Source: Microbotryum violaceum
Lineage: Eukaryota
Direction: 5' to 3'
NCBI GenBank assembly: GCA_001244265.2
Contig: CDLV01000005.1
Coordinates: forward strand, 2,294,001-2,358,000
Length of the DNA stretch: 64,000 bases
In this document: piece after piece, positions 5,845-59,053 of the stretch
How positions within the stretch are numbered: the first letter of the stretch is position 1
Layout: each line of letters starts with the position of its first letter
Notes under the pieces: model-generated
What the model was told of the DNA's origin: nothing
Databases searched by the model: none
What the model saw: only the letters and a program-made list of their open reading frames with translations
Translations under genes and position numbers: made by a program

Positions 5845-7557
5845 CTATAGTAGTTCAGCCCAGCCTTCTCTTTGAAGGGCCCATTTTACCCCTTCCTGTT
5901 CAATATACAGGCGAAAGCCATAGGTGTCAGCTCCTGCCTCTCATTCTCGCCCTCGGGACGCTAAGACGTACCCAAACGTCATCCTTCACAATCGTCGGTC
6001 GATGCTCCGCGTCTTTAACATCCCCTCTAAACACCCCCGTCCTAACCAGTATACTCTCCCACCCAAACGCATTCGCTCCCGCAATATCTGAGGCCGGGTT
6101 GTCTCCCAGCATGTAGACGTTGCCTTCGATTGGCCCTGCGTCGGAATTGACGACGGCTTCGTGGAGTGATTCAGAGGATGAATGGGTGTGAGGATTGGAG
6201 AGGGATCGGACATGGTGGGACAGGAGGGATGAAGCGTATTTGTATGTGTGTGAGGTAGGTTTGCCACCCGTTGTTCTGTGCAGCACGGCCCAGGCCCAGG
6301 TCATCAGTCTCGATGTGCTCTGGACAACCCCCCCCCCCCCCCCCCTTAACCCGGACGCCGACGCGCGCACCTGATCAAATCCTTGTTGTACGTCCGCTTC
6401 CAAACCGCCGCAACACTTTCTTGGAAAGCGCCTTGGCCGAACCGGGGTTGGGAGAACTCGTTCCCCCATAGTAAATCCGGATTGGAGAAATGTACGGGCA
6501 ATTGAGGTGAGCTTTCCCATTCGGAAGTCAATTTACTCGTCCCCAACACGCCTTGAGACGATGATAGGACGTCGCATATCAGTTGGACGTCTCGACCCCA
6601 ATTGAAGGAGTCATGGAAGACTAAGATGGCTGCAAAGGATATTTCGGAAAAGTCGACGTCGGCCTGGAAGACAAAAGGGAGATTGGTCCGGGTCAGGCCG
6701 ACTTTTCGCGACAAAAGAAGACTCTGTTCCAGCAATCTCCTACCTTGGCGTAAGCGACTTCTTTCTCGGTCAATTTTTGAAAGGGCCACACGCTTGCTTG
6801 CCAGTGTAATACGTCCTCCGGAATGTAGACGTGCTTGAACCCATAACTGTTTTGTTCGTGGCCAACAGCTTCAGTTCAACGTTCTAAGATGCGCATCTCT
6901 GCTTCCCCCCGGGGTAACTCAACTGTTGTGCGACTTTGCGACAATGATCCTTGATTCCTCCAATTACCAAGACAGGCTTATCCTCGAATTGGGGCACCAA
7001 ACCCCTGAAGATGGTATGACTTTGCACCACCTGCCCTTCGCCAATTTCGACGCCCAACTCGCGAGTCAACCTTTGCGCGCGAGTGGCCTCGATCGATCCA
7101 CCTCCATTGGTGAGGCAGATGAAGGGGAATTTCTGAGAGAGTTTGTTCTGTCCTGAAAGGACGGCGAAGGTTCGTTTGGCCTGGGGGAGGACGTGGGATC
7201 CTTGTTTGAGAACGCCGTCCTAGGTTGGGTTGGATGAGCGAGGAGGTCCGACGTTGACGTCAGGTTGGGGGGCCAACTTGAATAGGATCGAGCGAGCGTG
7301 ATATCTGTCTGAAAGGACGTACGATATCAAACGCAAACGCGACCGGTTTCCTAGACCCAGAAGAGGCTGCACGGGATGCAGGTCTCGATCGAGATAAGCT
7401 TTCACTTTGCACGGAAGCCGGCGGAAAGGGGTGCGGCGAGGGGTGGACCGAACTAACTGTTAAGTCGCCGGCGCGTTAATGACGTAGCACACGCCAGGGA
7501 CGGTCGCCGTATACACCCTAGTCCGACGGGTGAGATGCGGGGAATAACCACAGACAT
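5845..7557 (-). CDS. HAD-superfamily subfamily IIA hydrolase (CECR5/HDHD5-like)
   Basis: Spliced motifs AFAFDI|DGVL (DxD), LTNGGG, VVQSHT, VFHDSFNWGRDVQ, FSNPDLLW, PRFGQGAF, GKP and YMLGDNPASDIAGAN..GWESILVRTGVF. The last exon ends ..REGWAELL-TAG at 5845. The 5' end is approximate. Confidence 0.88.
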
Positions 7558-48219: not shown

Positions 48220-50014
48220 TCATTGGTAGATGTGGCCCGAGATCGCAATCTCCTTCTCGGCATCGAGCCCACGCCCTTCTGATTCGCCCTGTCGCACGAG
48301 AGGCATCACGCCGCGTCCGAACGCTTCAATTTCTGTATGGAAGATGGCAATGGGGCTGAGAAGTGATTTTGGAGGCTCTTCGGTGCTGAAGACTCACCCT
48401 CTTGGAAGTGCAAGAATGCGGTCAAGACAAAGTCGATCCCGAGCGACCGGAACAGGAGGATTCGATCGGCGACTTGTCGAGCGGTACCAATCAATTTGCT
48501 CTCTGCAGAAGGAGAATTTCAGGGGCTGGTGATTTTGTCGTCTGTACTATCGGGAAAATATTGCCAACGACTCACTGAAACCATCATTGTACTGAACCAA
48601 ATCATTAACATCGCTATTGGCCCACATACCCTTCTTATCCGAAGCCGAAGCGCCCGCATTCATAGCCTGCTGAAGAAACCCCTGTACCGCCTCGGTATCG
48701 GCCTTGCCCACAATCTCCCTCCACACCGCCAAAGCCTCCTCCTCCGTCTCGCGCACGATGACAAACGCATTGATGCCTAGACGGACCTGACCTGCTCGAC
48801 CTTCCTTGAGGGCGCGTTCCTTGGTATCGTCGATCAACTCGCGGATATCGGCGATCGTCTTTTGACCGTTCAGGAGCAAGAGGTCCGAAACTCGGGCGGC
48901 CATACCGCGTGCATCAGCAGAGTTGCCGCCTTGAAAGATCTCGGGACCGTTCTTTTGAATGGGTTGCGGTCGGAGAGGGTAGTTATTGTCTTTTTGGCCG
49001 GTGATGAGCAGCAAAGGAAGATGGGAGTCAGCAAATGTTGCAGGCTCTCTATCTAACCCGTTGCCATCAGACAAGCGCAAAGCGCACTCACACTGATAAA
49101 AGTTGCCATGAAAAGCTACCAGAATTCAGGACATGGCGGTTGAAGATTCAGTAAAAAAATCGATGTGGAACTTAAACAACGTGGCTGGACCTCGACTTAC
49201 TGAAACTCTCCGGTGCCGTCCAGATCCCGCGCAAGACCTTGATGAACTCTTCTGACCGTCTGTAGCGCTCTCCATGATCGAGCCACGGTTCGTTGATCGC
49301 TTGGAACTCGCCCTTGAACCAGCCGGAGACGATGTTGACGGCCACACGACCGTTTGAATAATGGTCGATCGAAGCGAGTTGCTTCGCTGCCAGTGTGGGG
49401 TTCCTAAAGAAGTGGGCGAGGACGAAGAGGCCTTGTCAGCGAGGTCTCGCGGATTGTCAAGTCGAAACTCCAGAGGTCAGATATACAAGACTTACCAGGG
49501 TCCAGGTAAGATAGCGATGATGAGTTTGAGCTTGGTTGTGTGGGCCAGTAAGTGCTGCGAGAACGAGGCGCTTTCATGCTGGAACTCGGCACCATAACCA
49601 CCCATGAAGCGAATTTGCGTTAAAGCGTGGGAGAAGCCGACACTTTCGGCAATTTGTGCCAATTTGACCTGGTACGGTTGGGGCCAAATGCTTGAGCTCA
49701 GGAATGATGGTGAAAGGCACCTAAAGCCTGTCGGTCCAAACGATCGGAAAGTGACGTGGGAGGTATGTCCAATGTTGTCACTCACGTTGTACTCGGGGGA
49801 CCAATCGGTGCGTTGTTCGATCTTGCTGACAACCAAACCTCCCGAAACGTTCGGCACCCCTGCAGAATGAGACGGGTAAGGAATGGGTTTCGGTAGATCA
49901 TGGATTCAACCGCGCTGCACTGCAGTGGGGCTCACAATAACCGAACTGAAGTGGAGCCCGGGCCGCTTCGTCCGAGTCACCTCTAGCGCTGGCAAAGGCT
50001 TCGGTGGAGGGCAT
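48220..50014 (-). CDS. sfnG: Dimethylsulfone monooxygenase SfnG-like luciferase-family FMNH2-dependent monooxygenase
   Basis: Eight exons and an intact frame: FGYWVPNVSGGLVVSKIEQRTDW..KLAQIAE..GFSHALTQIRFMGGYGAEFQHES..IIAILPGPW..GRVAVNIVSGWFKGEF..EPWLDHGERYRRSEEFI..FQGGNS..GMWANS..DLVQYNDGF..FLHFQEE. This closely matches Pseudomonas SfnG as I recall it. Confidence 0.9.
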
Positions 50015-50474
50015 GGTGGACGTGAGCGTTGGTGTTGAGATAAGTCACCGAGCGAATTGGTAGACTGTCCTTTGAAGTACAAGGACAGAGTGCAACTATT
50101 GCTCACATTGCGGGGTTCGCGATCAGTGGTCTGCATCGCGGTCCCCAAACTCCAATACCGCCGCGCAGGACACTGCCCCCTCTCGTCACTTGTTCCAGGC
50201 GGCGCGCGGTGGCGTGCTCGCGCAGTGAGGGCGTCGACCGGTCACTAGCGCTCGCGTCATCTTGAACTTTGGCGCATTTTGAGTCGTGAAAATGAAACGT
50301 TCTATTTAAGTCTCGGGAGACGATCTAGCGGACTATATCTAGGCACAGCCCCGCAATTGACTTGTTGGCAGCTCGCAAGTAGCTTCTGCTTCCCCGCGGG
50401 TCTACTTTGCTTTCGTGACACGGGTCACCGCGGAAGCACGCATTGGCCAAAAACGGGATCATACAATATCAAAT

Positions 50475-52067
50475 TCATGCGTGGGAAATGCGAACTACTA
50501 TCCGGCCAAATCCACACTCGCCTCTTCTCAATCGATCGAGCCCGTTCTGTGCAGTGCAAAGTATGTGCAGCCTGTCAGCACTCGAGCTCGGTCTTTTTCA
50601 CTCATGTATATGACAATCTCCTTACGTTCACTGCTTCGAGCCCTCCATGAATCACTTCCACCGCGGGTAAAACCAACTCATTGTTGCCGATCAGCTCCTC
50701 GAGCAGGCGCATCAATCCTGAGCCGACGGCGGCGTTGGTGTGAAACGTTTTGATTGGCTGGTATAGGTCGAGATCGGTTTTCTCATTAGTTTATGGTCAT
50801 GTTGAAGATAGCTGATACTTGATCCGACTGACGACTTCACAAAGTCTAACTCCCGAGCGAGCGGTCTTGGGTAAACCCGAGAGGCCGACCAAATAAGTGT
50901 CTGCTGACAGGGACAGAGCTTCCAGAGCGTGCGAGGCACTGGTCTTGCCGACGCAATCGATAGCGTACCGCAGTGCACCACCTGTGATCTCTCGAATCTT
51001 GGCCACCGCAGCGATTGGGTCGTCTCGATCTACGACGTGCTCTGCGAAGAGGAGAGAGACGAGCGATCAGCCAAGCCTCCTAACTTCCAGACCGAAGTCG
51101 CAAGGCGCTGACCACACTGACCGATGCCGACCGCACGAAGTCGCTCCTCATGCCGCTCTCTGTTGGCTACTGCTATCACTCTCAATCCCGCTGTCTTGGC
51201 TAACTGTGTCGCCAAGTAGCCTGATGTCGTAGAACCTGATAGATTTAGTCAAAGAGGTGTGAGCTCATGCACCCCGATCCGAGTCCCCACCTTTACGCGA
51301 TGCTCTTACCTCCCCAGATCAGAATCCAGTCACCAAACTGTGCCGAAGGTTCTTGGATTGGAGTTGGCGAACCGGTCGTCTTGACCCACTCAGGAGACTC
51401 GCCTTCGGCCCCGATGGCGAGGGAGCGAGGCGCGAACCCGCGGATCGCGATCCCGAGTGCCGAGCCAATAGCGAGTGCGGCAGCGACTGCTCCAACACCT
51501 GCCAGAGATGAATTTACAACATGTTACAGGATGTTAGGCTCCGAGCTGGAAGGGTTGGTGTGGAGCAGACAGCATCTCTTACCAAGGGCAGCGCATTGCT
51601 CAACGCTCGATTTGACTGGGACCGAGCCCAAGCAATGTTCCGAGGCGACCGCAAATTCCTGGAAAGCTGATGTCCTGTAATCGCGATAGGCCGTCGAGGG
51701 TCCAAAAACGAGGTCACCAAATCTCCACCTCTGAACGTTCGATCCGACCCCGACCACGACGCCGGCCAAATCGCGGCCATTCAGGGCGGGAAGCACCTGA
51801 GATCAAAGAACATCGTTAAGGGTCTTCAGGAGCGCGTACTAGGCGAAGAGTGTTTGGATGTGTCCAGGTAAGTTAGGTACTTACCGGAAGAGCAAAACCG
51901 TAGTCAGCCGATTTGTGATCGATGGGGTTGAGACCGATGGCTTCGATGCGGATTAACACCTCGTCGTCATGGAAGGTGGGCACCTCAATCTCCGAGAGCT
52001 GGTACCTCTGCCGAGGCGCGTGCAGCAGCAGCGCTTGTTGAACGGTCGGGCCGACAAAGACACTCAT
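50475..52067 (-). CDS. MDR/GroES-fold NAD(P)H oxidoreductase (enoyl-reductase/ToxD-like)
   Basis: Seven exons and an intact frame: EVLIRIEAIGLNPIDHK, GRDLAGVV, YRDYRTSAFQEFAV, WILIWGGSTTSGYLATQLAK and AIDCVG. Confidence 0.88.
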
Positions 52068-52373
52068 ATTATGAAAGGTATAGATGATAGTATCCAAGAA
52101 TGATGGAAGACGATAAGCGAAGGCTCGCCTGAGCGACTGACGAGGGTATTGGTGAGAGAGTTTGGATGCGGAGCAAGCGCGGAAGGTGCGGTGTCTGAAG
52201 GGTCGAGTCGTGCAATCGCTACTCGGCGAGCGGGTGAGCATCCGTCCGGGTTTGACTAAGCAGGTGGCTCTTTCTCTTCACTTCACTGTGAGAGCTGGGG
52301 CCTTGACGCGGCGTTGTGCGCTCACAGCGGGGCGCTCGGCTATTCCGCCGTGGGCCTAAGAAAATCAGGGGCT

Positions 52374-52720
52374 GATTGCGCAATCTCGCCAAACGTGCTC
52401 GCACGTCACAGCGGTGCCGCGGGTCAGATCGAGCACGGCATTCGGTTCGTCAGGGTGATCGAGCAAGAAGCCGAATTGACGACAGTAGTGAAGGCTGGTA
52501 CCGCTTTCATTTTTTCAAGAGCGCTTGAACTTGTCCGCGCTAAGGTAAGTAGTAGGTACATTGGACTTTCGATCAAGAGTGCACGTGACCTCGGCGCCCA
52601 GCCTGCTCACTAGCAGCGACTGGAAGGGGCCTCCATTCCCAGGGTGTCCCTTCCTCGATAAATGCGCCATCCCGGTTAATGAGCACTTGCTCCAAGAGTC
52701 ATGGCGCGGTATAGCGCAAT
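52374..52720. promoter_or_regulatory. Candidate bZIP- and Cbf1-type sites in the divergent promoter of the oxidoreductase and monooxygenase genes
   Basis: Palindrome GATTGCGCAATC (52374-52385), GCACGTGAC = rc GTCACGTGC (52581-52589), AATGCGCCAT (52661-52670) and ATAGCGCAAT (52711-52720). Confidence 0.35.
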
Positions 52721-52821
52721 CGCTTCGTCATCTTCTCCGCGCGCTTGCCTTCACATGCCCGCCTCTGTTGGAGCACCACTTTCTCAACCTCCCTTCCTTT
52801 CTTAGAACGATCACCATCAAC

Positions 52822-54409
52822 ATGCCTCACGCCGTCGATACACCTCCTACATCGTTCGACAGTCTCAAGCTCGGAAATGGGTCGAAAATTTCCTACCCTG
52901 ATTACACCACTGCTTCCCGACCTGTCTCACTCGAGGACTTCCTCAGGCGAGCCGAGGAGGTTTCGGACCTCCTCGGTTTGGATGTTGCCCAGGTGCGTAA
53001 TATAGCTCGTTGGACCTTTTGTTCATATAAGTTGATGAACACCACATTTCCACTCTCTTCTGCAGCGTGACAATCGAAACGAGGTTCCCTATGCGCAAAT
53101 TCAGCTCCTAAAGGACGCTGGCCTCGTCACGGCGCTAGGCCCGACTCGCTATGGTGGAGGTGGACTGCCGTTCGAGGCGAGCTACAAGATACAGCGCATC
53201 ATATCCAGGGGTGATTCTTCGGTTGGCATGATCCTAGCATACAGCTACCTTTGGTCGTGGACCGCCCAGGTCGTTGGTACCCAAGAACAAGCCGATGCGC
53301 TGGCCAAGCGGGTCACCGAGGGTCGCTTCATTTTGGGAGGCGCTGTCAATCCTCGGTAAGTACACCGTCTCACTCCTGATTCATGTGAAATACTTCCCTT
53401 ATATCTGAATGGCTGTGTATTCAACTTATGCAGAGACTCCGATCTCACTGTCACCGAGAGCGAAGACGGCAAGAGCATTGTTTTTAACGGCAGGAAGGCC
53501 TTTTCGACCGGATCAAAAGTGTCGGATCTCACCGTTCTTGAGGGCGTAACCAAAGGCACTGAAACGCACGTCTTTGCCATCGCCGAGTCCAAACAACCCG
53601 GTATCAAGTTCGGTGATGACTGGGTTGACGTCCTCGGAATGAGGGTACGTCTGCACTCGTTCTTCCTTCCCAGCCTCGGAACAATTGCGGATGACTGAGC
53701 GAGCCAACCCTCCCGCAATTCAGGGATCCCAATCCGGCTAAGTTACGATCTCGGATGTTCGATTGCCTTGGTCCGAGGCACTCGGCTTCGTCGAGAAGAT
53801 CTTCGTGCCGCTCGGGGCGTGGAACACCCGTGAGTTCTAGGCAAGATCAGCCGAGAGCTATCATATTACTGAGTTCGCAGTACCCTTGCAGTTCTTTTGC
53901 CCGCGATTCAGCTTCAATTCACCAACTTCTACACCGGCACGGCCCAAGGTGCGTTGAAAAAGGGCGCCTTGTTCACGGCAAAGAACACGCGCGGCTGGCC
54001 GTTCGCCGCCGATCCCAAGCAGACCGGTAGCGAAGAGTTCTACATTCAAGCGCTTTATGGCGAGTGGCAAGCGAAGTTGTGGGCCCTCGAGGCCCAAGTT
54101 GACCAAGCGGGTGAGATCATCGGCCAATTGCTCACTCGCGAGAGCCGTCAAATCACGGAGGACGAAAGGGGCTACGCCGCCGTGCGCATCGCCGCGGCCA
54201 AGGTTACCTCGACAGAGTTTGCGCTCGAGGTGACGAGCAAGATCTACGAAGCGCTTGGCTCTCGCAGCATCGCACTCCGAGCTGGGTTCGCGCACTTCTT
54301 CAACAATGTACGCACCCATACCTTGCACGACCCCGTCGCCCATAAGAAGGCCGAGGTGGGGCGCTATGTGTTGACCGGAGAGTACGCGACCCCCACTTGG
54401 TACACGTGA
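52822..54409 (+). pseudogene. MsuC/DszC/SfnB-type acyl-CoA-dehydrogenase-fold flavin monooxygenase with an in-frame stop (pseudogene or sequencing error)
   Basis: Five exons: QLLKDAGLV..YGGGG, GDSSVG, GGAVNPR|DSDL, FNGRKAFSTGSKVSD, LGMR|GSQSG*VTISDVRLPWSEALG and NVRTHTLHDPVAHK..TPTWYT. TAA at 53739-53741. Confidence 0.8.
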
Positions 54410-54688
54410 GCTCCCGAGTTGGTGCGGCAGAACAATTGCTGAATTGACTGGGACGGGGAGTTTGGTCATTGTAATTTTTACTTTGGGGCATGTGTTTTGA
54501 ATGACTTGTGTACGTTACTACCTTGCTTCTGGTACGTGAAATCCATGCGTTCTCCGGGCTGCTCCGGGCCGGGCCCGGCGCGGTACACTTTGTGGAGGCT
54601 CCTCACGGCCTCACGCGCCGCCGCCGGCTTCGCAGCGCTCGCTCTCCTGGCTTCTGCGTCGACCTACGATTCATTCACCACCATTTCG

Positions 54689-56335
54689 ATGCCGCCCAAA
54701 GGACTCAAAGCTGCTGGAAAGATCAAGAGGACAGCCACCGCGGCGTTCGACCCGTCTTCAGTTGGTATTGGCAGTTCGTCGACCGCGCCGGTTGCAGGAT
54801 CGGCTTCAGGCTCCGGAGACGTCTCGACCTCGACGCAGGACGGCGATGTCCGAACCATGCCCTTGGACGGCGATCGACTTTCTGTATCCGACCTTTTTGA
54901 ATTGAGATCGTCGGCGGTCGCACTTCTGTCGTCAGGCGACGAGGACAAGATGGAAGAGGCGAGGGGTCTGCTGCGAGGGATCCTCCACGGCGTACAAGAC
55001 CTGCTACCGCTGGTGCCGAAGCATCACTCGTCTCAGGCTCAAGAAGGACAGGTTGAAGGCATCGGGAAGGGAAAAGCCTCAAACGAAGACCAAGCTGGCG
55101 AGGAGGACAGCGAGAAGGTCGAATTAACGAACGATCAACTGCGAGCACTCGGTCTAGTCGACAAGGAGCAGCAAACGATCGCGCTCGAAGCCGAGCCGCA
55201 ACTCTACTATCTCCAAGCCTGGGCGCTACATCACTATGCGCTCGTTCTACCAGCCGGAAAAACATTCGCTCAAGCAAAACTCCTCTCCGAAGAGACGGGG
55301 AAGCGGCGAAAACTCGACCCGAGCGAGTCGAGGGATCCCGGCGAATGGCTTGCCCTGGCCAGCCAGAAGTACGAAGAGGCATTAAGGTGGCATGCCGACT
55401 CGGGCAACGACTTCGACCTCTCCCACCTTCTCGTCCTCGCCGATGGCAACCGCTGTAGTGCCGATCGAACGGCGTTCCTCATGAGTAAGCAGGAGGAGGA
55501 GGCAGCGCGCCAGTTGATGGAATCGGGCGTGGGGGACTTGCTACCTTTGATAACTCGCATCAAATTCGACGGCCAGCATACTCAAGAAATCGAAATGTTC
55601 TTTGAGGAGCGTGGTGATCTCATAGCCGTCATTCTGCGCTCCATTGCCTCTGTCATTGCCAGTCAGGAAGAAGTGGCATCACTGGCACAGCTCGCGCATT
55701 CGGAAAAGGTCTGCTCGGCGCTTGACACCGCCCTCGAGCCTATCAACAACGGCAATGGGTCATGGATCACGGCCGAGACGGCGCTGCAGTGGAGGTTCGA
55801 TCTTGCGATCATTCGTGGTGACATCGCCCTGGCCCAATTCGGTGTCGAGATCGAGATCGTGGAGGACAAGTATCGTCCCGACGCGACGGAAGACGATGAA
55901 GGGGACGTGGAGCCTCTGCCAGTCGACGCGAAAGAAGTGAATGAAGCCCAAAGACGAGGCGAGGAAGGTGCGTCCAGCTTTTAAGTATGAAGTATGCGTC
56001 CAGACCGTCCTGTCCGACGCACTGACTTTGCTCCGACGAACCCCGGTGCAGCCATTGCCAAACTCCGAGGCACGATCGAGTTGTACTCCGGTCTTCCGGC
56101 GAAAAAGCAAATCGCTACCGTCAAGACGGAACAGTACCGCAAAGTCAGTCCGGCCCTAATACCTCCCTATCCATTCGCTTCGACTGACACTGCGACTTTG
56201 ACCTTTGGGTAGCTCGAGGAAGCGCACCTCATGTACTCTGCACTCTTCAATCCGGACGATGAAAAGAAGGCTCAAGAGATCGAGGCCGAGCTCAGCAAGA
56301 TCAGGGCAGAGGGTGGCCTCGATCAAACATCATAG
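54689..56335 (+). CDS. Probable ETT1/Nro1-like helical-repeat protein
   Basis: Three exons. The basic N terminus MPPKGLKAAGKIKR, LRGILHGVQDLL and C-terminal LEEAHLMYSALFNPDD loosely resemble Ett1/Nro1 motifs. The coding region is clear but the identity is tentative. Confidence 0.5.
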
Positions 56336-56487
56336 AAGTCGGGTGCAGTTCTGCAATACATGCAATATAAGCCTAGTCCGACAAGTACAAAAGAGAACAG
56401 AACACCTATAGAATCCGGGTGTATGTCTTTCGGAAGTATAGGATTGTCCGCCAATATGCATTGATTGCGAATAAGATGATATCGTTC

Positions 56488-59053
56488 TCACCAAACGTAA
56501 CGAAAGGCGGCGTTCCGCTTGTCCGTCGAATCGCTGAAAGCCAAGTCCTGGGCTTGCTTTTCGACACTCCGGTCTCGTCGTCGGTTCTCGTGGATGCAGA
56601 GGGCACTGCATGATTTGCAATGCGGAAGACTTTGTTCAGGTTCGTCGTCGGGTGCCAAAAAGCAATAAACGCGCGCTGCAGCCAACGAAGCCCGACTGAC
56701 CCGTAGACAACACAAAGCCCGATGCCAGCGCATTGCAGAATCATGGTCACTTTGAACGCAAATGGGTACCGCGGTTGCTCCGATTTCTTGAACAAGAAAG
56801 CTGTGTAAGAAAGGACCGGGCGTGAGCCTCGTCTCTGACGATGATGATCGGGTTCCTGGAATGCACTCACGAGTCGCGATGTTGGCGCCAGCGATCGAGA
56901 TGAAAACTAAACCGGAGACGGCGATCTTCTTTGTCGCACCAGCGGTATTTGATACTAGTTTGAAACAATGTAGAGCCACTTCAGCAACGTGACATTGATT
57001 CAAAAGACCCACGCAAGTTGAGGACACGTACAAGCCAGGCCCGTCAGCCCGCCGAGGGCGCCGGACGACGCAACAATGAGGTACACTCCAGCCAGCAACC
57101 CCTCTTTCTTCGCCAGAGTCAGACGCCACTGCAAGGCGGTCCCCGTCGCGCTCAATATTGAGAGGGAAATAATCACTGCAATGCGCGTGTTCTTGTATTT
57201 GAGCGCGATATACCTGAGGATGTGAAGGCGAGAAGTTCAGGTCAACAGAGCTGGAAGGATCGAATGACTAAACCAATCGCACTGACCCTCCTATGATGTT
57301 TGAAAATCCAGCGACCAACCCCGTCGGCATCAGCAATAGCAGCGTGCGCAGAGCATCAGCGCCGTAACCCTTCGAAATGACGAGAGGTGAGAATGCGCCG
57401 ATGACGCCGGCCGATGCGCAGGTACAAAAGGTCGCAAGCATGAGAACAACGACCTTGATGTCGCAGACGGCCTCGAGTAGATGCGATCCTTTCAACCGCT
57501 TCGAGTTCAGCCCGGCTTGATTGTCTCGCAAGCCTATGACGAATGGACACAAGAAGAGCGTCAGCAAGCTGATCAAGGCCATCGACTCGGAGGCAGCACG
57601 AGCTCGGACCCACGCTCAACGGCGACATATCGCTGACGAGAAGTCAGCCACTTGGCGGAAACGGGCGAGTCGGGTAGGAATACGTAGAGGAAGCATGCGA
57701 AGATAATCGTCAACACGCCAATGAAGTAGTAGATCGACTTCCAGGCATGCGCCCGAGATCCGATATGCACGATCCCATAGACCATGGCCAGCAACGGTCT
57801 GCGACAACAAACAGGGGCTCGTCAACTTTCATGTCTCGAGTAGAGCGCTGCCCTCTAAATACTTACACACCGAAGAATCCGTTCGCAGAATATAAGATTG
57901 GCGCGCGAAGAGCTTGTTCGCGCTTGCGGTACCACATGCCTGACAACAGAAAGCACCACCGGGTCCCGCTCGATCAGTCCACCTCGGCTGCGGACAAGCT
58001 CCTGTGCGCTCGTGCACGACTTACCAAGGATCGTCAGAAATGCCGGAGATACCCCACCTTCTAATATTCCGAGTACGAATCGCTGTTGGCATGAACAATT
58101 CAGAAAGTGTCCCCGCAAGAGCCTTGCAGAAGAGGAAGCCTGTGCGCCTCACCTGCCCCATGATACCCTCAAACCCGGTGCAGGTGGGTGTGAGAAGGGT
58201 CACGATGCCCCAGAGTAGCACATAAAGCGAACAGATCTTGCCCGTCGGAAAGCGTTGTGCTATTGGCGAAAGTATAGGCGTGCCAACGACGTAGCTGTGC
58301 GTAGGCGACGGAGGAACGGGGAATGCAAATTCGCGCAAAGATCAGTTCGGCACTTCTGATGTAAGACGCGCCGGAATCAAACATGGAAGCTTGCAGACAG
58401 GCGTCCCTCCGGCACTGAGACATACCCAACATAGTATATTATCGAAACCAAGGTGTATTTCTATCGCCGGGGACGCGGCTCGTGAGCATCAGTGCGTGGT
58501 GGACAGTGCGAGCTACTTGGAAGCCTCACGTGAGTGTCGAAAGTTCCACCCGTCTGTGCAACGAAAAGCTTAAGGTCGCGGATCAATCCAAAGAGAGCAC
58601 CAACAGACAACCTGGCATTATTTTTTTGGAACTCAAAGTATGATCAGCAAACAAGGTGGGAGTCGCCAAACGACGCGTCAGCACGTGAGCCGACGGCCTT
58701 GAAGAGTTCAAGTGTTGCCTCGAGCACACTTCCCGTGCCGAGTCGATGCCCTGGGCGTCCGCGTTGCAGAGTCCCCAACTCACGCAGCTTTGTCGGCGTA
58801 TTGCATAGCCGCCCCAAAAAATATCAGCGGCAGGATTCTCCAATCGATCAACTTGATCAATTCACGTTCCTCCTCTGGTGATGGGGGGTTGGGAGTCCCA
58901 TTCAAGCGCTTGTAGCACCCGGATAGCCTCGTCGTCATATCCGCGCTGGCGATGGGAAGCGAGGCCGGACACCGCGTAGTCGACCGACTGGAGAGGGTCT
59001 GCCACTTTCGTATCGTCCATGGACCCAGCATGGGAGTGCGGACCAGACCCCAT
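56488..59053 (-). CDS. MFS transporter, allantoate permease (DAL5/ACS) family; possible 5' frameshift
   Basis: EEERELIKLIDWRILPL..QYADKA, QRFPTGK, RFVLGILEG, MWYRKREQ, AWKSIY, FLPDSPVSAKWL, SNTAGATKK and ENRRRD..AFSDSTDKRNAAFRYVW. About 10 exons. Confidence 0.88.

Follow-up and report, generated by a model that had tools for sequence, protein, structure and literature searches.

A conserved SfnG-type gene cluster in Microbotryum violaceum as a candidate fungal module for sulfone scavenging

Genes at the locus

The stretch of DNA analyzed here, referred to as the window, comprises 64,000 nucleotides (64 kb) of Microbotryum violaceum (assembly GCA_001244265.2, contig CDLV01000005.1, positions 2,294,001 to 2,358,000). 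Its positions 48220..59053 carry genes for an SfnG-like monooxygenase, an oxidoreductase of the medium-chain dehydrogenase/reductase (MDR) superfamily, a monooxygenase of the acyl-CoA dehydrogenase (ACAD) fold and a permease of the major facilitator superfamily (MFS), which an earlier note, made from the letters alone, had put forward as a candidate organosulfur-scavenging cluster. Pfam searches on stop-to-stop open reading frame (ORF) pieces confirmed all four genes, with order and strands as claimed. Bac_luciferase was matched by all three pieces at 48547-49905 (minus strand), ADH_N/ADH_zinc_N by three of five pieces at 50797-52277 (minus strand), Acyl-CoA_dh N/M/C by three of four pieces at 52549-54409 (plus strand) and, weakly, MFS_1 by two of six pieces at 56406-59052 (minus strand). 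The cluster is real and conserved, and represents an intron-bearing variant of the bacterial sfnG/msuC system. Its MDR protein, not spotted as such in the earlier note, is a fungal-specific and sometimes fused partner of SfnG.

Gene models were obtained by spliced alignment to orthologues. The predicted gene for an SfnG-type dialkylsulfone monooxygenase dependent on reduced flavin mononucleotide (FMNH2) spans 48220..50014 on the minus strand in eight exons (49936-50014, 49786-49859, 49496-49668, 49201-49403, 49092-49115, 48576-48989, 48398-48502, and 48223-48332; stop codon 48220-48222). Its intact product of 394 amino acids (aa) is identical at 394 of 394 positions to a protein of Microbotryum lychnidis-dioicae p1A1 Lamole annotated as 'alkanesulfonate monooxygenase' (P0002). 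Between the stop codon of the MDR gene and the start codon of the SfnG gene lie 463 bp (50015..50477), presumed to hold the SfnG promoter. The gene for the MDR protein, a predicted NAD(P)H-type reductase of the LovC/quinone-oxidoreductase kind, occupies 50475..52067 on the same strand, with seven exons (51885-52067, 51583-51796, 51310-51498, 51122-51235, 50833-51041, 50626-50757, and 50478-50546; stop codon 50475-50477) and an intact product of 370 aa, identical at 370 of 370 positions to P0241 (MVLG_00405) of the same M. lychnidis-dioicae strain. A region of 754 bp in the gene models (52068..52821) separates it from the putative ACAD-fold (group D) flavin monooxygenase gene, so that the divergent transcription of these two genes described earlier is borne out. 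The ACAD-like gene (52822..54409, plus strand) has five exons (52822-52992, 53066-53355, 53434-53644, 53724-53829, and 53892-54406, followed by TGA) that form a frame of 431 codons with a premature stop, and the model is 94.4% identical to P0121 of Microbotryum intermedium. Every intron in these three models is of the GT..AG type, with lengths of 62-117 nt. A literature search found no paper that names MVLG_00403 to MVLG_00407.

SfnG and its two partner proteins

The luciferase-like protein P0002 reached 526.9 bits on TIGR04021, the equivalog model for SfnG (cut-off 382.95), and 141-146 bits on the models for SsuD/alkanesulfonate monooxygenases (cut-offs 510-518). All 14 fungal homologues scanned passed TIGR04021 (485.7-575 bits) and all 14 failed the SsuD cut-offs. 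Furthermore, P0002 matched the solved dimethylsulfone monooxygenase SfnG of P. fluorescens (PDB 8t0u) over its full length (E 4.9e-140), with fungal SfnG being about 61% identical to a P. fluorescens SfnG. When 19 active-site residues named in the accessible part of a structural paper (PMC11588060) were traced in an alignment, 17 were found to be kept in the window protein. These include the hydrogen-bond donors to dimethylsulfone (DMSO2), W121, R55, and N297, the five-residue aromatic cage of W11, Y60, F267, W285, and Y296, and the O2-site residues N116, T52, and Q53; an SsuD control lacked most of the DMSO2 pocket residues. A tree of 53 rows, rooted on SsuD-type sequences and calculated by a quick search with support from the Shimodaira-Hasegawa-like approximate likelihood-ratio test (SH-aLRT) only, placed 22 fungal rows in one starred clade (99*) inside SfnG, sister to proteobacterial SfnG including a P. 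fluorescens sequence, and divided this clade into a basidiomycete and an ascomycete group. Taken together, these results indicate, at the level of sequence, that the luciferase-like gene is an SfnG orthologue whose substrate pocket is kept, and the identification made in the earlier note holds. As a separate observation, SfnG of the basidiomycete Mycena fell inside the ascomycete clade beside a fusion protein of Lasiodiplodia (99*), which may reflect transfer from fungus to fungus or contamination.

For the MDR protein, the best solved relative was LovC (E 1.5e-25), followed by quinone oxidoreductases. It contains ADH_N and ADH_zinc_N domains and a Rossmann glycine motif. GHE is the zinc-ligand motif of zinc-type MDR enzymes; the window protein has no GHE and reads NGRDLAG at this position. 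By these features it is assigned to the non-zinc quinone/enoyl-reductase branch of the superfamily.

Its tie to SfnG is documented by gene fusions as well as by gene order. Among 120 SfnG homologues listed, 28 carried MDR domains and none a classical flavin-reductase domain, and in 29 of 31 proteins examined the MDR match preceded the SfnG match. Typical full-length fusions consist of a whole MDR (40-44% identity to the window MDR), a linker of about 30-48 aa and SfnG. An exhaustive search of representatives with P0241 ranked a basidiomycete protein (P0248) first and two such fusions next, namely P0263 (874 aa, Cryoendolithus/Rachicladosporium) and P0264; outside the Microbotryomycetes, the nearest relatives of the MDR are thus the N-terminal halves of MDR-SfnG fusions. 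In metagenomes, 80 loci were recovered with an MDR profile, some of them on contigs that are probably repeats of one organism. SfnG lay directly downstream on the same strand in 16 of the 80, with both halves in a single stop-free frame in nine of these 16. It was found downstream of 14 of the 16 best-scoring MDRs that had at least 900 nt of downstream sequence, compared with two of 26 weaker-scoring ones, which are presumably paralogues. This MDR was found in none of 160 bacterial loci (80 proteobacterial sfnG loci and 80 actinobacterial loci), and an MsuE-type reductase gene was directly upstream of sfnG in four of eight bacterial loci scanned.

Two further observations concern this protein family. 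The SfnG-linked MDRs share an invariant T-x-Y-R-D-x-R motif (residues 96-102 of P0241) that is not found in LovC in the alignment, and which is a candidate binding site for an anionic ligand such as flavin phosphate or sulfinate. In addition, the MDR orthologue of Phenoliferia psychrophenolica (P0247, 984 aa) is annotated as fused to RING/IBR-type domains, probably because two gene models were merged.

The third protein, with ACAD N, M, and C Pfam domains in its gene pieces, had been described as an MsuC/DszC-type monooxygenase. The best solved relatives of the fungal protein are TdsC (215 bits), 8cda (213 bits; a 'probable monooxygenase' without a name in its record), DszC (205 bits) and MsuC (6u76, 190 bits), with true acyl-CoA dehydrogenases at 57 bits or less. 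All nine ACAD-like proteins scanned fell below the cut-offs of the curated DszC model (NF043015; 199-292 bits against 850) and SfnB model (TIGR04022; 180-247 bits against 430.9); the eight fungal relatives among them scored 199-272 and 180-224 bits, respectively. On TIGR04022, the true SfnB genes located next to sfnG in bacteria reach 477-638 bits. The nearest non-fungal relatives are actinobacterial proteins annotated as 'acyl-CoA dehydrogenase family' (49-53% identity). In a tree of 40 rows (without Dms1-3 and DszC), the fungal sequences grouped with the actinobacterial ones in a starred clade of 26 rows (99*), sister to the MsuC/SfnC clade (five rows, 100*; its MsuC reference was checked at 690 bits against 6u76) and apart from both true SfnB and a third ACAD type found beside Pseudomonas sfnG. 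Because of this placement in a sister clade and the failure at both cut-offs, we class the protein as a putative SfnG-associated group-D oxygenase of the actinobacterial operon type and not as MsuC, DszC, or SfnB as curated. The earlier assignment is therefore retained as far as a DszC/TdsC/MsuC-like ACAD fold beside sfnG is concerned, and given up for membership of the MsuC/SfnC clade. Another group of ACAD-fold proteins, with 42% identity to the fungal one, was seen on a plasmid of Rhizobium acidisoli (L161), where the gene adjoins an annotated SfnB-family gene, a luciferase-like monooxygenase (LLM)-class oxidoreductase gene and ABC transporter genes; this neighborhood suggests another sulfur-acquisition module.

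In the window, the ACAD-like frame is interrupted by an in-frame TAA at 53739..53741 (plus strand), codon 230 of 431, within the conserved block LGMRG(S/T)QSGS, at a position occupied by Ser or Ala in the 13 orthologues listed. Contigs from two sequencing runs, X2 (depth 228) and X8, either of which may represent the source strain, agree with the A at 53740. In run X15, which comes from a relative differing by 21 substitutions over 8 kb, this position is C and the codon therefore TCA (Ser); a stretch of 16 bases is also missing from this run at 52420, in the divergent promoter region between the MDR and ACAD-like genes. Among matches of at least 313 aa to the C-terminal ACAD exon, M. intermedium was present and no protein of M. 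lychnidis-dioicae was found, which is consistent with a broken gene. A splice that would avoid the TAA (poor GC donor at 53673, acceptor 53742), suggested by distant guide proteins, was rejected since it would replace the conserved GSQSGS block with unrelated residues, and no other splice avoids the stop. The in-frame TAA implies that the ACAD-like gene yields no full-length enzyme in this genome. The nonsense change is recent and lineage-specific, and the S-oxygenase gene is inactivated here, a point missed in the earlier note.

Linkage in other genomes, neighboring genes and promoters

The linkage of these genes extends to other fungi. In M. intermedium (locus tags 3094/3095/3096) and in Microbotryomycetes sp. 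JL201 (002300/01/02), the MDR gene lies between the SfnG and ACAD-like genes, and in NB124-2, JL221, Sporobolomyces carnicolor, S. koalae, and Rhodotorula pacifica the tag numbers of paired genes differ by one or two. The metagenome contig L218 (GC content 48%) has the same arrangement as the window, with the ACAD-like gene on the minus strand and the MDR and SfnG genes on the plus strand, and a second contig (L207) contains the divergent ACAD-MDR pair. The conserved linkage that the earlier note had proposed to check was thus found, in locus tags of seven named genomes and in the arrangement of L218. On that contig, a gene of the Gpr1/Fun34/YaaH family (small-anion channel type) lies at 7162-7515 (minus strand) between the ACAD-like and MDR genes. 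As a lead only, the accessible part of PMC11778650 gives SfnG (KIW15895) and a DszC-like protein (KIW15893) of Exophiala spinifera two accessions apart. No description of a fungal SfnG cluster or of an MDR-SfnG fusion was found in the literature searched, which did not include Linder 2012.

Bacterial loci show a related pairing. A gene for an ACAD-fold monooxygenase neighbors sfnG in 61 of 80 proteobacterial sfnG loci. Among 80 actinobacterial loci of the ACAD-like clade, sfnG lies on the same strand within 2.6 kb in 58, mostly less than 200 bp away, and these 80 loci also include an SsuD-type gene in 29 and an MsuE-like reductase gene in 13 cases. One sfnG-ACAD pair, from a metagenome-assembled genome labelled Candidatus Melainabacteria (L088), nests among Pseudonocardiaceae in both trees and looks like a mis-binned actinobacterial contig. 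With respect to origin, fungal SfnG groups with Proteobacteria and the ACAD-like protein with Actinobacteria, yet the residue changes S188N/N284M are common to fungal and actinobacterial SfnG. These conflicting affinities imply either that the pair did not arise by one simple transfer or that the root of the SfnG tree is misplaced.

Next to the cluster, an open frame (54443..55984, plus strand; 513 codons between stops) separates the ACAD-like gene from the permease gene. It matched no Pfam family and, as a lead only, Nro1/Ett1 clusters in a protein atlas (0.89); the frame probably represents a housekeeping gene (Ett1/Nro1 kind) with no relation to the cluster. The annotation of M. intermedium joins the corresponding frame to the ACAD-like gene in P0121 (955 aa), which is probably a gene-model error. 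The permease gene itself spans approximately 56406..59052 on the minus strand, a range given without an exon model. On three of eight permease exon pieces, TIGR00893 (2A0114) was the best NCBIfam family (E 1e-8, 7e-8, and 0.006), although such fragments score far below the whole-protein cut-off, and in the protein atlas the pieces matched generic MFS clusters only. The anion:cation symporter (ACS) family containing Dal5/Soa1 is TC 2.A.1.14. The membership of the Dal5/Soa1 group in the ACS family is stated in the accessible part of PMC5303821. The earlier description of a DAL5-family permease one gene away holds for the position; the ACS/Dal5 type is probable at family level only, and membership in the cluster is no more than a possibility. 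In the annotation of Rhodotorula pacifica, the ACAD-like protein (P0130, 1098 aa) forms a single product with a sodium:solute symporter (SSS; TIGR00813, 186 bits), which places a transporter of a different family directly beside the cluster. Three transporter families are accordingly seen at the cluster, i.e., MFS in the window, SSS in R. pacifica, and Gpr1/Fun34/YaaH on L218. The other domains found among 84 ORF pieces of the window (Myb, PSP1, Rgp1, prenyltransferase alpha, lipoyl transferase, and protein kinase) are of housekeeping type, in agreement with the setting described before.

The promoters were searched for the site of the sulfur regulator CYS-3 of N. crassa, ATGRYRYCAT, as given in the accessible part of PMC8550094. 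The window contains no exact match (0.75 expected) and 14 matches with one mismatch (16 expected), none of them in the promoters of the cluster. No word is common to all three promoters (SfnG, divergent, and MFS). The SfnG and divergent promoters share one 10-mer (0.68 expected) and the divergent and MFS promoters share six (0.93 expected from mononucleotide shuffles), which are scattered (best blastn E 0.085). One 10-mer, AAATGCGCCA, occurs once in the divergent promoter (52660-52669, plus strand) and once in the SfnG promoter (50270-50279, minus strand), and the whole window has just three copies of its core ATGCGCCA. The word is similar to the CYS-3 site ATGGCGCCAT less one base, a similarity that was picked post hoc and is not statistically secure. 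According to the accessible part of PMC8550094, the genes that respond to sulfur starvation and CYS-3 by induction in N. crassa include one for an alkanesulfonate monooxygenase and one for a DszC-like protein. Sequencing run X16 was considered as a source of RNA and set aside, since it consists of unspliced pieces without joints (e.g., 50500-50944, across two introns) and looks like DNA.

Proposed pathway, alternatives and known systems

With a probability of roughly 0.6, we read the locus as the eukaryotic counterpart, with introns, of the module by which bacteria scavenge sulfones. In this pathway, FMNH2-dependent SfnG would cleave one C-S bond of DMSO2 or a close dialkyl sulfone, giving an alkanesulfinate and an aldehyde; judged from its pocket, the substrates are probably small aliphatic sulfones. 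The ACAD-fold group-D S-oxygenase may act on a neighboring oxidation state of the same sulfur, as its clade and the actinobacterial operon partners suggest, either by oxidizing the sulfinate to the sulfonate (as MsuC) or a sulfide or sulfoxide to the sulfone (as DszC and Dms1-3). The MDR, whose gene immediately precedes that of SfnG and which forms fusions with SfnG in Dothideomycetes, would be a dedicated NAD(P)H-using partner, and its position and the fusions point to reduced-flavin supply, the role of MsuE/SfnF, as its most likely function. The nearby permease, probably of the ACS/Dal5 type, may import the substrate. In this genome, the MDR-SfnG core is intact and the S-oxygenase gene has recently been disabled by the nonsense mutation. 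Of the clustered first two steps of DMSO2 use proposed in the earlier note, the SfnG step and the conserved linkage are kept, and the second step is weakened by the placement of the ACAD-fold protein outside the MsuC clade and by the stop codon.

Several observations weigh against this reading. Two FMN-contact residues of SfnG are changed relative to the Pseudomonas enzyme (S188N and N284M), both changes being present in every fungal sequence aligned and in an actinobacterial SfnG. The ACAD-like protein stays below both curated cut-offs (DszC and SfnB), and its identity to the products of ACAD genes beside proteobacterial sfnG is no more than 30-35%. Adjacency in the seven named basidiomycete genomes is one of locus-tag numbers, not of coordinates. 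The ACAD-like gene accompanies the MDR gene in just two of the 80 metagenome loci, so that the MDR-SfnG pair would be the widespread core and the much rarer trio a narrower form, and no SfnG lies within 10 kb of the MDR in two high-scoring loci (L224 and L240). To our knowledge, no MDR has been described as a flavin reductase, and LovC, the best match of the window MDR among solved structures, is an enoyl reductase. In the promoters of the cluster, no N. crassa CYS-3 site was found. Finally, no gene of the SsuD/MsuD or TauD type and no classical FMN-reductase gene was found among the 84 ORF pieces of the 64 kb window, which leaves the sulfite-releasing step and the source of flavin unaccounted for within the window.

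A possible alternative, which we consider less likely than not, keeps the same system and changes the order of its steps. Here, the ACAD-fold enzyme would act upstream of SfnG in the manner of DszC or the A. baylyi Dms1-3 enzymes, oxidizing a dialkyl sulfide or sulfoxide, such as dimethyl sulfide (DMS) or dimethyl sulfoxide (DMSO), to the sulfone, and the sulfinate would undergo oxidation or desulfination without a dedicated enzyme. The ACAD-like protein indeed scores slightly higher against TdsC and DszC (215/205) than against MsuC (190), obtains more bits from the DszC than from the SfnB model, and lies outside the MsuC/SfnC clade. Moreover, the accessible part of PMC13352529 describes bacterial group-D enzymes that convert DMS to DMSO and on to DMSO2, an msuC deletion in A. 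baylyi without a growth defect, and a low kcat of MsuC, which probably prefers other substrates. These findings mean that the order in which SfnG and the ACAD-fold enzyme act is not fixed by sequence, and that this strain may still be able to use DMSO2 even though the gene is broken. However, a verified MsuC belongs to the sister clade of the ACAD-like protein, some actinobacterial operons (sfnG-ACAD-msuE-ssuD) mirror sfnG-msuEDC, and closeness to Dms1-3 or DszC, absent from the tree, is a matter of scores.

Rather unlikely, in our view, is a scheme in which the MDR is not the flavin supplier and acts on the product or substrate of SfnG, for example by reducing the aldehyde set free in C-S cleavage or by saturating a C=C bond of an unsaturated sulfone, with flavin being delivered by a general cellular reductase. 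The solved structures closest to the MDR are those of enoyl and quinone reductases and not of flavin reductases, formaldehyde or acetaldehyde is a product of SfnG (according to the accessible part of PMC11588060), and the invariant T-x-Y-R-D-x-R motif could bind an anionic substrate. On the other hand, the protein lacks the zinc-type GHE motif used by aldehyde-reducing MDRs, it stands in the position that an MsuE-type reductase takes upstream of sfnG in half of the bacterial loci scanned, and the fusion of a reductase to an oxygenase is most simply seen as a fused two-component system.

A more far-reaching version of the favored reading is offered only tentatively. According to it, the LovC-like MDR is a new kind of NAD(P)H:flavin reductase that in fungi has displaced the MsuE/SfnF type as the partner of SfnG, and its fusions with SfnG are self-sufficient. 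The MDR-SfnG fusion of Dothideomycetes and lichen fungi may then be a natural single-polypeptide sulfone monooxygenase, and the pair of SfnG and group-D oxygenase may have reached an early dikaryan fungus from bacteria, with introns gained since.

It appears improbable that the genes serve not sulfur nutrition, but the detoxification or modification of xenobiotic or host-plant sulfur compounds, or secondary metabolism. This notion draws on the resemblance of the MDR to LovC, a trans-enoyl reductase of polyketide synthesis, on a non-ribosomal peptide synthetase (NRPS)-like gene (AMP-binding and PP-binding) about 4 kb from SfnG on L218, on the lack of a sulfur-regulator motif among those searched for in the promoters, and on a preprint which, in its accessible part, reports C. 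albicans mutants in related FMNH2-dependent monooxygenases without a sulfonate growth defect. It is opposed by the strictly kept DMSO2 pocket of SfnG, by the occurrence of bacterial relatives of both oxygenases in sulfur-assimilation operons with SsuD- and MsuE-type genes, and by window neighbors that are of housekeeping type instead of a biosynthetic cluster. Mere chance adjacency of unrelated genes is very improbable and, for the trio, already contradicted, since, even though primary-metabolism genes are rarely clustered in fungal genomes and the permease and the intervening gene have no demonstrated tie to the cluster, the order is kept in seven further named genomes (by locus tags), entirely on L218 and partly on L207, MDR and SfnG are fused in one reading frame, and sfnG is paired with the ACAD gene in 58 of 80 actinobacterial loci.

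A large share of the sulfur in soil and on plant surfaces is present as sulfones and sulfonates. Fungal FMNH2-dependent sulfone/sulfonate monooxygenases have, according to the accessible part of a review (PMC5857272), not yet been characterized genetically or biochemically. The locus provides a concrete candidate for such a fungal pathway, with an SfnG orthologue whose substrate pocket is intact, a conserved partner oxygenase and a fungal-specific putative reductase partner found fused to SfnG in one lineage. Should the reduced flavin come from the MDR, this protein would represent a new class of reductase for two-component monooxygenases, and the fusions would provide self-sufficient biocatalysts, ready for use, for the cleavage of C-S bonds. 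The contrast of TAA and TCA in an obligate plant parasite, in turn, constitutes a natural comparison bearing on the importance of the partner oxygenase in vivo.

Among known systems, the co-localization of JLP1 with a Soa1-type transporter in Basidiomycota (PMC5303821, accessible part) is a precedent for fungal genes of scavenging enzymes beside Dal5-family transporters. The window permease is probably of the same broad family (TC 2.A.1.14); the enzymes, however, belong to another family, an unrelated gene stands between the permease and the cluster, and other transporter families (SSS in R. pacifica, Gpr1/Fun34/YaaH on L218) take its place elsewhere. The 4S pathway of Rhodococcus (dszABC(D)) and Dms1-3 of A. 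baylyi resemble the cluster in combining a group-D S-oxygenase with a luciferase-like sulfone C-S monooxygenase and a separate NAD(P)H reductase. Unlike in the dsz system, the fungal ACAD-like protein is below the DszC cut-off, the putative cleaving enzyme is of the SfnG and not of the DszA type, and there is no DszB-type gene. The uncharacterized sfnG-ACAD(-msuE-ssuD) operons of Glycomyces, Nocardioides, Actinosynnema, Amycolatopsis, and Saccharopolyspora contain the closest non-fungal relatives of the ACAD-like protein, in the same clade, and an SfnG with S188N and N284M. They differ from the fungal cluster in having no MDR, and fungal SfnG groups with Proteobacteria instead.

Pseudomonas sfnG together with msuEDC/sfnECR shares with the fungal cluster an orthologous SfnG, a linked ACAD-fold group-D monooxygenase and a reductase gene directly upstream. 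In contrast to the bacterial system, the fungal gene in the reductase position encodes an MDR and not an MsuE-type flavodoxin-like FMN reductase, the fungal ACAD-fold protein belongs to a sister clade, the window has no MsuD/SsuD-type gene, and the fungal genes have four to seven spliceosomal introns and separate promoters. StyA2B is a fused, 'self-sufficient' two-component flavin monooxygenase, and the Dothideomycete proteins are similar to it in joining an oxygenase to an NAD(P)H-binding, reductase-like domain. In their case, however, the fused domain has an MDR/LovC-like fold in place of the HpaC or flavodoxin type, and its role as a reductase is putative. The MDR as the partner of SfnG is the new element of the fungal cluster relative to the bacterial systems.

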